Of a stretch of DNA of 64,000 nt, positions 7,955 through 25,350 are shown in pieces; position 1 is the stretch's first letter; every line of letters starts with the position of its first letter. Source of the DNA: a virus. The translations under genes and the position numbers were made by a program. The DNA is taken from the IMG/VR virus record IMGVR_UViG_3300025000_000067, positions 1 through 64,000 of that record. One strand, given 5' to 3'. A model generated the notes under the pieces. The model did not search any database. It was given only the letters and a program-made list of their open reading frames with translations, and was not told the origin of the DNA.

Positions 7955-8048
7955 AAAACCATCCACTTTTTAAAAGTTCCTATGTATGATCCCAGTAAGG
8001 GGCGGGGCAGGAAGCCCCTAAAATAACTACTGTGAGGAGTGAAAACCT

Positions 8049-10031
8049 ATGATTTTAGACTTAGTCGATGCCAAGCATGCCTTTTTCAACGGGAATACGT
8101 TCAGCTACAAAGCCCTTATTAAAGTAGTACCAGGGGCTGCATGGAATTCAAGTGACAGGCGCTGGGAGGTGCCCATAGAGAGTGTAATGGATGCTAAGCG
8201 TATTCTCCCATCCCTGCAGCTTTCTGAGGATATACAGCGCCTTGTAAAGGCTCTTGACGTTAGAAATAAGAAAGCTATTGAGCTTAAGTCAGCTGATGAG
8301 TCAAAAGCAGTTGCCACGGTTAAAGGTCTTAAAGGAACTCTACGGCCCTATCAGGCAGTTGGCAAAGCCTTCTTGGATGTTCTTCAGCAGGGGGAGGGTG
8401 CTATTCTCGGTTATGACATGGGTCTTGGGAAGTCACTGACAGGATTAGCAACGTTCTTAGACTGGAAGAATAGAGGGATTGTTGATTATTGTTTAGTAAT
8501 CTGCCCAGCGCCTCTGAAGTACTCGACATGGGAGAAAGAAGTTCAGAAGTGGACTGACCTTGAGGTAGTAATTGTCGATGGGGATAAGCCAGAAGTGGTG
8601 GAATGGGACGATGGCACAAAGGAGAAGTTAAAAGGACGGAGTTTACGAGAGGTCCAGTATCTTCAGTACCAGTACGGGGCAGCTATCATTGTTATGAACT
8701 ATGAGCTTTTTCTCCATGATAGTGAAGTTGACCGGTGGGATAAAGTTCGTGATCTAAACCAAGATGAGATAGACATGTACTTTAGATTAGCATCTGAAAA
8801 TAATGATGCAAATGGGCGAAAAGCTGACAGTGCTAAAGGGTTAGCTGTCGCAAGTAAAGCACTTGTTAAAATGCTGGTGTCTTCTGCAGAAGCAAAGGAA
8901 CATAAGATTTATGGTAAGAAGACCCCATGCCTAGCAAAGAGGCGCGTGCTTCATAACATCATACCGAGAATTAATGATCGCTGGTGTGTGATCCTTGATG
9001 AAGCTCACAGGTGTAAAAATAACAAGAGCTCAGCTGTTAAAAGAATCTTCAAAGCCCTTCCCAATGCAGGTAGAAAGATCCCAATGAGTGGAACACCCCT
9101 AGAGAACAATATCCAAGAGCTCTGGTCACTTGTAGACTTGTGTAGGCCAGGACTTTTAGGTACTCACTTTAAATTTATTGATCGTTACTGTGAGAAGGAC
9201 TTCTTCGGAACCATTGTAGGCCCTAAAGTGGGTATGATGCAGGAATTAAAGGACCGCATAGCCCCTATAATGCTTCGGAAGACAAAGGAAGAGGCTCTAC
9301 CAGACCTGCCAGAACTTACAGTCCAAGACTACTGGGTGACTATGACTCCTGAACAAACTAAGCTCTATGCTATGATCAAAGAGGGCATACTTCAGAACCT
9401 AGAAACTCAAGAGTTTTCGTACTTAGAGACTTTAGCCCAACTCACTAGGCTTCAGCAACTCCTTGATAGCCCAAGGCTCCTGAAGGAGGTCCTAGGAGAT
9501 GATACCCTGCCTATTGAAAGTGGTAAGCTGAATGAACTAGCTCATTTGATTGAAGACATAGGTCCTAAAAAATTTGTGCTCTTCAGTCAGTACAGGGAGA
9601 TGACTGATATCCTGTATAATTGGCTTATTGACTCAAAGATCCTTCAGAAGGACCAGATAGGGTACATTCATGGTGGTATGCAGGCCAGAAAAACAGCCCA
9701 AATTCAGGATGGCTTTCAAGAAGGGGATATCCAATGTGTACTCATGACGACAGCTGGTAACTATGGTCTTCAGTTGGATGCTGGAAGTTACGTCATATGT
9801 TACGATGAATTATGGAATCCTCAGAAGATGGCCCAGATATACTCGCGAGTTCACCGGAGCGGGGTTAAGAACGCAGTAATAGCCATTAATATGGTAACCC
9901 GGGGAACTTATGAGGAGAACAAGCTAAAGATCCTTGAGGGTAAGCGTGAGCTGTTCAGTGCCATGATCGACAATGATGACACAGCCTTTGCTAGTATTCT
10001 TAGTAAGGATGACTTTATAAATATGATTTAG
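8049..10031 (+). CDS. SNF2-family helicase
   Basis: LRPYQ, DMGLGKS, DEAH, SGTPLENNIQELWSL, SGKL, FSQY, GNYGLQL, WNP..Q..SRVHRSG. Confidence 0.95.
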   Translation: MILDLVDAKHAFFNGNTFSYKALIKVVPGAAWNSSDRRWEVPIESVMDAKRILPSLQLSEDIQRLVKALDVRNKKAIELKSADESKAVATVKGLKGTLRPYQAVGKAFLDVLQQGEGAILGYDMGLGKSLTGLATFLDWKNRGIVDYCLVICPAPLKYSTWEKEVQKWTDLEVVIVDGDKPEVVEWDDGTKEKLKGRSLREVQYLQYQYGAAIIVMNYELFLHDSEVDRWDKVRDLNQDEIDMYFRLASENNDANGRKADSAKGLAVASKALVKMLVSSAEAKEHKIYGKKTPCLAKRRVLHNIIPRINDRWCVILDEAHRCKNNKSSAVKRIFKALPNAGRKIPMSGTPLENNIQELWSLVDLCRPGLLGTHFKFIDRYCEKDFFGTIVGPKVGMMQELKDRIAPIMLRKTKEEALPDLPELTVQDYWVTMTPEQTKLYAMIKEGILQNLETQEFSYLETLAQLTRLQQLLDSPRLLKEVLGDDTLPIESGKLNELAHLIEDIGPKKFVLFSQYREMTDILYNWLIDSKILQKDQIGYIHGGMQARKTAQIQDGFQEGDIQCVLMTTAGNYGLQLDAGSYVICYDELWNPQKMAQIYSRVHRSGVKNAVIAINMVTRGTYEENKLKILEGKRELFSAMIDNDDTAFASILSKDDFINMI

Positions 10032-12476: not shown

Positions 12477-12552
12477 TGGCGCGTAACTCAGTGGTTAGAG
12501 TGCCGAGCTTATACCTCGGAAGTCGTTGGTTCAAACCCAACTGCGCCAACCA
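12477..12552 (+). tRNA. tRNA-Ile(TAT)
   Basis: complete 76-nt cloverleaf; anticodon arm CCGAG-CT-TAT-AC-CTCGG; encoded CCA. Confidence 0.92.
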
Positions 12553-22348: not shown

Positions 22349-22648
22349 ATGGCAGTACTACCGAAGCGTAACTTAGTACCTACATCAGCAGCACGTAAAA
22401 AAGCGATCCCAAAAGTAATGGAATCGCCTGTGCTACCTGTGATAGAATCTAGTAAACCTGTTCTTCCGAAGTATAACCAGAAACTTAAGCCATGGCAAAG
22501 CGCTCCTAATACATCTATGGAGCTAATAGGGTGCTGCTCTAGCCACAAGGAATGTCTGGCTTATGGGGATTGTGTAGAAAAACTGTATCATGTCAACTAT
22601 AAAAAAGTATGCAGCCTCTACAGACGCATACGAAAGGGAAGGGGGTGA
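22349..22648 (+). CDS. hypothetical Cys-containing protein
   Basis: IGCCS.H.EC...G.C..C. Confidence 0.55.
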   Translation: MAVLPKRNLVPTSAARKKAIPKVMESPVLPVIESSKPVLPKYNQKLKPWQSAPNTSMELIGCCSSHKECLAYGDCVEKLYHVNYKKVCSLYRRIRKGRG

Positions 22649-23827: not shown

Positions 23828-24334
23828 ATGAAAAAGAAGCCTGTTATTCTTATTAATGGCACTGGCAGGTCCGGTAAGGATACCTTCATTGGTTTTTGTG
23901 ATGAGATGGTGCCATGTTTTAATATTTCAGCAGTGGATAAAGTGAAAGAGGCTGGGGCTATCCTGGGTTGGAATGGGGCTAAAACTGAGAAAGATCGTAA
24001 GTTTCTCTCAGACCTAAAAATGCTATCCATCGCATACTCTGACCATCCATACCAGTATAGCACAGAGCAGATTGAGCTATTTCAGAGTGACCCACAGTAT
24101 GCTCTTATGTTTCTTCATTGTAGAGAACCTGAAGAGATAAAACGTTTTGAGGAACTTGGCTGCATTACCCTTTTAGTTACTAACAGCAATGTGGGAATCA
24201 TAGAAAGTAATGAATCTGATGCAAATGTTCTTGATTTTAAGTATGACCACTATGTAGACAATAGCAGGTCACTAAAACACCTTGAAGCTAAAGCTCACGC
24301 GTTTGTCCGTTTACTAATAAAAAGTGCTGAATAG
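23828..24334 (+). CDS. phage nucleotide (dNMP/adenylate-type) kinase
   Basis: ILINGTGRSGKDT P-loop; WNGAKTEKDRKFL; HCREPEE. Confidence 0.75.
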   Translation: MKKKPVILINGTGRSGKDTFIGFCDEMVPCFNISAVDKVKEAGAILGWNGAKTEKDRKFLSDLKMLSIAYSDHPYQYSTEQIELFQSDPQYALMFLHCREPEEIKRFEELGCITLLVTNSNVGIIESNESDANVLDFKYDHYVDNSRSLKHLEAKAHAFVRLLIKSAE

Positions 24335-24363
24335 CTCAGCGGGACAACGCCAAGCCATTCAGC
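24321..24363 (-). terminator. minus-strand terminator of a hidden transcription unit
   Basis: on minus: GCTGAATGGCT..AGCTATTCAGC-ACTTTTT; the G.U pair forms only on the minus strand. Confidence 0.65.
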
Positions 24364-24391
24364 TTCAAGGAAATATGAAAAGAGCTGGTAT

Positions 24392-24544
24392 TTAGTGTCC
24401 TAACGAGAGAGCCAGGGGGAACTCAGGTCGGACAAAACTTACGGTATAACTTAAATTACTCGTATACGTAGGTACGCTAACGGTCAGAGTAGCTCCTAAG
24501 GTTGGAAAACTGAGCTTAAGCTCTAGCTGCATCAAGCGACTCAA
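24392..24544 (-). CDS. putative 50-aa small protein
   Basis: GAGGTGA RBS, TTG start, MSRLMQLELKLSFPTLGATLTVSVPTYTSNLSYTVSFVRPEFPLALSLGH; lies between a promoter and a terminator. Confidence 0.5.
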   Translation of the reverse strand: MSRLMQLELKLSFPTLGATLTVSVPTYTSNLSYTVSFVRPEFPLALSLGH

Positions 24545-24681
24545 GATGCTCACCTCTGATATAACGATTAACCCTACATCGAGTTATTAAACTAACCTGA
24601 CTTAATTACAGTGTATGCAGGTACAAGACTAGTATGCCACCGGGTAGCTTAGTATATACACAAAAATATGTTATAGCTAAC

Positions 24682-24710
24682 ATACTAAGCTATTCGACAT
24701 GGTTCGTCAA
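24682..24710 (-). promoter_or_regulatory. sigma-A promoter overlapped by tandem Spo0A boxes
   Basis: on minus: TTGACG-N17-TAGTAT; TGACGAA-cca-TGTCGAA. Confidence 0.7.
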
Positions 24711-24750
24711 TGCTTAAAGTCCCTAAAAGAGAGGTTGGTGATAAAAATTT

Positions 24751-25350
24751 ATGCCAACTAAGCTAGGCACAGTAACGATCCTTGCCTTTGACCCCGGTAC
24801 AGCTAACCTAGGTTACGCTGCTTTATCCTGTGACTTAAGAACTTCAGAAGCTCGAATAAGCGAAAATTATGGTGTTTTTAGAACAAGTAAGCTGAATGAT
24901 GGAACAGAGGTTCCTATCCGTGAGCGTATTGATACTCTAGGTGCACAGGTTAGACTACTTATTAGGTCCATTAATCCTAGTTTCATTGCTATGGAAGATT
25001 TTGTAGAGCAGGGTAAATTTGTAGGAAAGACCTACAAAGAGATGAGTTATCTAACTGAACACCTGCGCCTTGTATGCAGAGAGATGGGCTACGATGTGAC
25101 TATATACTCTAATGGAATCTGGAAGAAAAAAACCTTAAATGCGACGAATGCTAGTAAGCTACAAGTTCAGCACTATATCAGACACAAGGTTCTTGGTACA
25201 GAGTGCCTTCAGAAGGAACCCGATCATGTATGGGATAGTGTAGGAATTGGCTACTGCAGGTGGTTGGACTACTTAAAAGGTGGCAAGGGGAGGACTGAGA
25301 ACGAAAGGAAAGTACCAAGGGTCAGGAGGGTTGCCTTACGTGCGAAGTAG
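24751..25350 (+). CDS. ruvC: RuvC-like Holliday junction resolvase
   Basis: ILAFDPGTANLGYA, AMED, NASKLQVQ, DHVWDSVGIG. Confidence 0.9.
   Translation: MPTKLGTVTILAFDPGTANLGYAALSCDLRTSEARISENYGVFRTSKLNDGTEVPIRERIDTLGAQVRLLIRSINPSFIAMEDFVEQGKFVGKTYKEMSYLTEHLRLVCREMGYDVTIYSNGIWKKKTLNATNASKLQVQHYIRHKVLGTECLQKEPDHVWDSVGIGYCRWLDYLKGGKGRTENERKVPRVRRVALRAK

Follow-up and report, generated by a model that had tools for sequence, protein, structure and literature searches.

A thymidylate kinase pseudogene between the dNMP kinase and RuvC genes of an uncultured phage

Introduction

Long co-directional gene blocks of phages are at times interrupted by gaps, and one such gap raises the question of whether it conceals a regulatory unit on the opposite strand or the remains of a gene. 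The window analysed here comprises the first 64 kb of a 102,131-bp IMG/VR record of an uncultured phage, and the gap in question covers 416 bp (24335-24750) within a long run of plus-strand genes for replication and nucleotide metabolism. It is flanked by two plus-strand genes, of which the first codes for a 168-aa protein:

23828-24334, plus strand: T4-type dNMP kinase (DNMK) gene, phrog_139; the Atlas clusters carry PF21448 DNMK
24751-25350, plus strand: RuvC-like resolvase gene, phrog_159; the conserved right-hand neighbour of the thymidylate kinase gene (tmk) in all relatives

The original prediction regarded the gap as apparently empty and proposed a hidden minus-strand unit in it, with a promoter overlapped by tandem Spo0A boxes, a small ORF, a terminator and nested complementary segments, which was interpreted as a sensor of the sporulation state. 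Each of the motifs that it listed is found in the sequence at the positions given; its interpretation as a whole is partly supported. The gap sequence is single-copy in the genome and shows no match to cultured-phage DNA. A tRNA/tmRNA scan of it recovered none, though a D-arm-like string is present; the sole tRNA called by ARAGORN and Rfam in the window is a tRNA-Ile gene with anticodon TAT at 12477-12552.

A decayed thymidylate kinase gene fills the gap

Far from being empty, the gap holds a recognisable tmk pseudogene (hereafter the relic) on the plus strand. A tblastn comparison of the gap with Tmk proteins gave an E-value of 7e-7, and the homology can be laid out as follows:

24320-24538, plus strand: confidently alignable part of the tmk pseudogene, by tblastn, frameshift-aware alignment, HMM and PF02223
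24320-24349, plus strand: collinear translated piece, Tmk residues 13-22
24351-24392, plus strand: collinear translated piece, Tmk residues 23-36
24394-24444, plus strand: collinear translated piece, Tmk residues 38-54 (SVLTREPGGTQVGQNLR)
24485-24538, plus strand: collinear translated piece, Tmk residues 109-126
24539-24750, no strand assigned: rest of the gap (former 3' part of tmk and the tmk-RuvC spacer), no longer aligning reliably

The tail and stop codon of the kinase gene overlap the start of the relic. Its pieces are spread over three frames, with two frameshifts and three in-frame stops, and residues 55-108 (~55 residues, or about 120 nt) have been deleted. The block with the LTREPGGT motif and the GWKT block are still recognisable, while the C-terminal third of Tmk is not alignable; the intact frame with a P-loop and LID region that would mark a functional tmk is lacking.

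Several lines of evidence converge on this identity. A frameshift-aware chain alignment to Tmk scores 110 (z = 17 against shuffles), as compared with 28.5 +- 4.7 (maximum 45) for 200 dinucleotide shuffles, 27 for the minus strand and 29 for the reversed protein. A lineage HMM built from the three intact phage Tmk proteins of the contigs L002, L014 and L015 matches all three plus frames collinearly (E = 4.8e-7, 0.0037 and 0.19) and none of the minus frames. The sole candidate for PF02223 in the whole genome falls in the gap, at 11 bits, which is under the Pfam cut-off. At the DNA level, the gap matches the tmk gene of the L002 and L003 records with 82% identity over 44 nt, and its remainder (24539-24750) shows short collinear matches to L002; this part also includes the ribosome-binding site of RuvC and a hairpin (24641-24697). 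Identity of the retained segments to the L002 tmk is 0.69/0.78/0.47 by codon position, a figure biased by the choice of these segments through protein alignment; the live RuvC gene shows the same pattern against L002 (0.69/0.73/0.34), which suggests that the relic has undergone little neutral decay so far. Taken together, we consider a young tmk pseudogene to be the best overall explanation of the gap, with a probability of about 0.6.

The same kinase-relic-RuvC order is found in one metagenome contig, L011, the RuvC and kinase proteins of which are respectively 84% and 76% identical to those of the window. The lesions of the relic are present there too. This contig also decides the fate of the predicted minus-strand gene:

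24392-24553, minus strand: 53-aa ORF antisense to the relic; spurious, being broken in L011, with no relatives and no PHROG hit

The predicted ribosome-binding site and 50-codon ORF do exist as sequence: GAGGTGA at 24556..24550 precedes a frame ending at 24392, which runs for 53 aa from a GTG or for 50 aa from a TTG at 24544. In L011, GAGGTGA is changed to GACGTGG, and the counterpart ORF has a stop at codon 9 as well as a frameshift caused by the loss of 1 nt. When 1.84 billion representative proteins were scanned with HMMER, no small-protein relative was recovered, the only matches being two long repetitive proteins. Hence, the proposal of a small protein is refuted, because both the ORF and its ribosome-binding site are broken in a relic that is 95% identical. 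The Tmk blocks that are best preserved are exactly those to which the ORF is antisense; it is a by-product of the former coding sequence and makes no protein.

Gene order points to a probable displacement by a second nucleotide kinase

Comparison with relatives places the relic where an intact tmk would be expected. The viral contigs L002 and L003, whose RuvC proteins are 59% identical to that of the window, have no gap; instead, a 207-aa gene for a thymidylate kinase (PF02223, 104 bits) stops 82 bp short of RuvC. An intact tmk adjoins RuvC in L002, L003 and L013 as well as in L014 and L015. The spacer before RuvC in these relatives is 0-82 nt, except in L015, where about 280 nt separate tmk from RuvC and may include a 78-aa ORF. 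The window shares with relatives such as L002 and L014 the order PolA, a 68-aa gene, a 95-aa gene, an insert, tmk and RuvC. After the PolA, 68-aa and 95-aa genes, the window continues with ThyX (PF02511), the dNMP kinase, the relic and RuvC. The gene ahead of the kinase is itself variable: the window has ThyX (PF02511, 23124-23789) and L011 has ThyA (PF00303, 1210-2040) at the same position, which is a non-orthologous thymidylate synthase swap.

At the kinase-RuvC locus, DNMK is found only in the lineage of the window and L011. Its relatives in other phages (L020 and L021) occur in different genomic surroundings, where the kinase gene is followed by neither a hairpin nor a relic, although in L021 the DNMK gene directly follows a ThyX gene, as in the window. 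We infer that the lineage gained a thymidylate synthase and a dNMP kinase of predicted broad substrate range as a pair immediately upstream of tmk. As both the window and L011 carry a T4-type dNMP kinase upstream, tmk probably became redundant; the gained kinase would have made it dispensable, so that it lost its reading frame, and the plus-strand operon transcript would now cross the relic as an untranslated spacer. Decay through redundancy after kinase gain is thus a plausible course. It would be an instance of non-orthologous displacement involving the T4-type dNMP kinase (PF21448), in which a broad-specificity kinase lies beside a decaying dTMP-specific one. The alternation of ThyX and ThyA in the adjacent slot likewise fits displacement in phage nucleotide-metabolism modules, with the redundancy presumed here.

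In these terms the locus documents a hotspot of gene turnover in a phage nucleotide-metabolism module, with a ThyX/ThyA swap, gain of DNMK and loss of tmk. The lesson is mainly a corrective one: what appeared to be a hidden regulatory unit is a pseudogene left by the non-orthologous displacement of a nucleotide kinase.

Two further interruptions were noticed among the relatives. The ThyX homologue of L021 (1530-3002) is a single 490-aa ORF in which the two halves of the enzyme are split by ~825 nt of in-frame extra sequence that looks like an intein. In L009 (about 8002-8780), the PolA homologue of the L002-type phage is interrupted, with residues 1-180 and 179-877 matching stretches 778 nt apart; the interruption may be an intron, an intein or an inserted gene.

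A strand-biased hairpin at the left end of the relic

The U-tailed terminator of the original prediction, on the minus strand, finds support as a predicted signal. The left end of the relic coincides with the following element:

24316-24363, minus strand: 16-pair hairpin and T-run resembling an intrinsic terminator, from folding and its counterparts in relatives

On the minus strand the hairpin at 24363..24326 is followed by ACTTTTTATT; its stem has 16 pairs, 8 of them G-C, and leads into ACUUUUUAUU. At -26.6 kcal/mol (z = -6.6) on the minus strand it is the fifth strongest of 25,576 sixty-nt window folds; the value for the plus strand is -18.9 kcal/mol, the minus strand being the more stable because three A.C mismatches become G.U pairs in it. 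It overlaps the stop codon of the kinase gene and is kept in L011. Stable two-tier hairpins also occur at this position, where the P-loop is encoded, within the intact tmk of both L002 and L014; their stems differ in sequence and are again more stable on the minus strand, and L015 tmk has no hairpin there. An origin in an incoming kinase cassette was considered and rejected: the hairpin must come from tmk rather than from the cassette, since the DNMK relatives located elsewhere (L020 and L021) lack one after the kinase. Accordingly, being exceptional in stability, better formed on the minus strand and conserved, this hairpin is probably functional, and its predicted role is probably that of a minus-strand intrinsic terminator that predates the decay of tmk and stops antisense transcription. 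One L011 substitution weakens the stem more on the minus than on the plus strand, which makes the strand assignment probable rather than certain.

The L002 Tmk (L002:2280-2903) has GLGGT where L014 and L015 have GLGKS and GIGKT, respectively; it is thus without the P-loop lysine exactly at the conserved hairpin, and this otherwise intact protein may, judging by that motif, be catalytically impaired.

A second minus-strand hairpin with a U6 tail is found at 22381-22440, inside the 5' end of a plus-strand gene (22349-22648), with -29.9 kcal/mol on the minus strand versus -16.8 on the plus. In L011 it shows one compensatory change, from A-U to G-C, at the base of the stem. The two hairpins are the strongest terminator-like sites of the 19-kb plus-strand block, and the conservation of the second with a compensatory change suggests that antisense termination signals in this block may be purposeful. 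The strand-biased hairpin at the relic and the similar one 2 kb upstream may both be deliberate stops for antisense transcription. Just upstream of the second hairpin are two promoter-like sites on the minus strand (22498..22470 and 22596..22569), each matching at 10 of 12 positions; in L011 the former is weakened in both hexamers and the latter has one change in each (TTAACA and CACAGT).

Folding of the gap as a whole

The many nested complementary segments of the original prediction do fold, but when the gap is folded in its entirety the result is only modestly above chance, at z = -2.4 on the minus strand and -1.0 on the plus. Rfam 15 yielded no hit in the gap at the gathering score, and a permissive search returned eukaryotic miRNA and snoRNA models as the best matches, with E-values of 0.16-9. 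Consensus folding of the window with L011 gave no compensatory pair on either strand of these two sequences, and therefore cannot choose between the strands. Neither of the checks proposed for a structured RNA, namely Rfam and covariation, thus returned a signal, and a structured minus-strand RNA is neither supported nor ruled against.

The substitutions that separate the window from L011 bear on which strand might matter. All the surrounding genes are on the plus strand and the gap is therefore transcribed on it; the spacer could be a structured, untranslated part of the operon mRNA that stabilises the 3' end behind the kinase gene and that, as a leader or processing site, controls how RuvC is translated. 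Consistent with this, three L011 substitutions in the 24641-24697 hairpin (G.U to A-U, C-G to U.G and G-C to G.U) keep pairing only on the plus strand, and the change in the terminator stem is milder there. Nevertheless, we hold such a cis element to be quite improbable: the plus-strand fold is no better than that of shuffled sequences, no known leader or riboswitch family matches, and the relatives with an intact tmk make do with the short spacers noted above before RuvC, L015 excepted.

Near-identity of the relic in two diverged phages

A puzzle for the pseudogene interpretation is that no part of the locus is better conserved than the dead gene. Window and L011 share about 95% identity in the relic, which is the best conserved stretch of the 6.4-kb comparison. 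Over 24289-24449 they differ at 2 of 161 nt (1.2%), and over 24450-24750 the divergence is about 7%. The flanking genes have dS values of 0.67-1.22 and dN values of 0.09-0.16, and a neutral relic as old as the split of the two genomes would be expected to be about 55% identical. The conservation runs ~27 nt past the T-run on the left and into the first 60 RuvC codons on the right. We considered whether its sharp left edge (24289) might mark the old start of tmk and rejected this, as kinase homologues show that the C-terminal helix with the FVRLL tail is native to the kinase.

Most simply, the high identity would reflect a recent recombination tract in a mosaic region, and we favour the recent recombination of a non-functional relic over selection at somewhat better than even odds. 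The left edge of the conserved block falls within the kinase gene, and other patches of low divergence are found nearby, with identical third positions in 52 of 60 kinase codons (31-90) and 53 of 60 RuvC codons (1-60). The ThyX/ThyA swap in the adjoining slot and the paucity of neutral decay in the relic point the same way, and an identity of 99% over 160 nt exceeds what a typical small RNA needs. Against this, divergence is graded, from 1% through 7% to 11% in the 5' end of RuvC, and does not fit one simple tract. Further, four L011 substitutions cluster in the loop (24449-24462) of the 24438-24472 hairpin and spare its stems, and the key positions of the promoter-like site as well as both 0A-like boxes (see below) are kept in L011. 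The choice between recombination and selection is judged on two sequences: scans with RuvC and the kinase of viral contigs, metagenome contigs and species genomes found L011 as the only relative bearing the relic. RuvC homologues with 64-85% identity (P0003 and P0005-P0010) are also known at the protein level. The functional readings of the relic, taken together, come to somewhat less than even odds.

One of these readings operates at the level of DNA, with strand-specific hairpins serving as priming or recombination signals such as a single-strand initiation site, part of an origin or a hotspot. Such a signal would account for the conservation and, at once, for the cassette swaps close by. 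The site belongs to the replication and nucleotide-metabolism block, it is the very point at which gene content varies (ThyX/ThyA, DNMK and the loss of tmk), and the conserved block extends beyond the T-run and into RuvC. Yet iterons, an AT-rich unwinding region and a skew change are all absent, the region is, as noted, single-copy in the genome and no direct evidence for such a signal was found; we accordingly see it as extremely improbable.

The 5' end of RuvC beside the relic has an unusual pattern of its own. In the first 45 RuvC codons (within 24751-24930), comparison with L011 shows 9 amino acid differences and only 4 third-position differences, an excess of replacement over silent changes.

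The promoter-like site and the 0A-box-like repeat

The right-hand part of the gap carries the two elements on which the proposal of a Spo0A-controlled unit was built:

24682-24710, minus strand: sigma-A-like promoter match TTGACG-N17-TAGTAT, 9 of 12 positions; the second hexamer is TAATAT in L011
24693-24709, minus strand: head-to-tail repeat TGACGAA-N3-TGTCGAA, resembling 0A boxes; overlaps the -35 hexamer and the spacer

The promoter sequence is indeed present at 24710..24682, but its match quality is at chance level: sites as good number 5 versus 3.7 in shuffles over 2 kb, and 42 versus 34.7 over 19 kb. The tandem boxes TGACGAA-cca-TGTCGAA are likewise where they had been reported, 3 bp apart on the minus strand (24709..24693). 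This pair occurs in 0 of 100 shuffles, and no other perfect tandem exists in the 102 kb of the genome. Single TGNCGAA boxes show no enrichment (20 versus 16), and the tandem pattern with up to two mismatches is rarer in the genome than its reversed control. In L011 both boxes are unchanged, the spacer between them is changed and the key promoter positions are kept, a persistence that carries little weight at 95% identity. In L002, L014 and L015 the region ahead of RuvC has neither the boxes nor the promoter. We treat both elements as sequence matches whose function would be putative.

The consensus Spo0A box is TGTCGAA, to which Spo0A~P binds as a dimer (PMC2731898); one of the two boxes here is that consensus and the other is one position off. 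The closest parallel is the A2c promoter of the phages phi29 and Nf, where the protected region contains two boxes 3 bp apart reaching into the core promoter (PMC2731898). The site in the gap has the same arrangement of two head-to-tail 0A-type boxes, 3 bp apart and partly over a sigma-A-like promoter match, in a phage genome. The abrB promoter, invoked by the original prediction, is a poorer analogue than A2c because its boxes lie downstream of the promoter (PMC12090719). As the boxes in the gap cover the -35 hexamer and the spacer, their occupancy would repress. The genome of phi29 has six consensus boxes, whereas here there is one candidate site per 102 kb. It could just as well be called a generic 10-bp direct repeat, a kind of sequence bound by many response regulators.

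The host offers weak hints at most. No relative was found in 185,579 species genomes. The taxa of the Atlas lean towards Bacillota, and the nearest cultured DNMK proteins, at 36-38% identity, are from Enterocloster phages of about 100 kb; Enterocloster is a genus of spore-forming Clostridia. These are weak hints of a Bacillota host.

Put together, these elements could describe an exapted relic, with a minus-strand non-coding RNA of ~350 nt running from the sigma-A-like promoter (24710..24682) to the terminator (24363..24326), an RNA that would act in trans or by base-pairing to the operon mRNA in the stretch between kinase and RuvC. In its favour are the location of the promoter-like site and the terminator on one strand, their retention in L011, the greater stability on the minus strand of both the whole-gap fold and the terminator hairpin, and the strong conservation against L011; for Spo0A involvement one can add that the tandem boxes are unique in the genome, that at phage promoters Spo0A protects two 0A boxes spaced by 3 bp (PMC2731898) and that there are the hints of a Bacillota host. 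Conversely, the promoter match is at chance, with ~0.4 such sites expected within 400 nt upstream of the terminator, and neither an Rfam family nor a compensatory change is seen. The plus strand better accommodates two of the L011 changes in the 24641-24697 hairpin as well as one in the terminator stem, boxes and promoter are missing from L002, L014 and L015, 0A boxes are not enriched in the genome, and an identity of ~99% over 160 nt is beyond the needs of a typical small RNA. Both the non-coding antisense RNA and Spo0A control are hence possible but unsupported, and we think it unlikely that the relic was exapted in this way.

The likeness to antisense RNAs of the lambda OOP type lies in a promoter-like site and a terminator opposite an early or replication operon. 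The OOP RNA is a short phage antisense RNA of about 77 nt with its own promoter and intrinsic terminator; the RNA predicted here would differ in being about 350 nt long and antisense to a dead gene. The full proposal, that a dead tmk was recruited as the body of this antisense RNA and that its promoter is gated by a Spo0A~P dimer sitting on the boxes over the -35 hexamer and spacer and shutting it, as at A2c of phi29 and Nf, strikes us as very improbable. Were it true, a Spo0A-gated RNA would link the replication and recombination operon of the phage to the sporulation decision of its host, and the near-invariance of the relic between two diverged phages would reflect selection on the antisense RNA.

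Another minus-strand promoter-like sequence, TTTGCA-N17-TATGAT, lies further left within the kinase gene at 24225..24197. Its hexamers and spacing are identical in L011 (2476..2448), although the kinase gene is only about 79% identical in DNA between the two.
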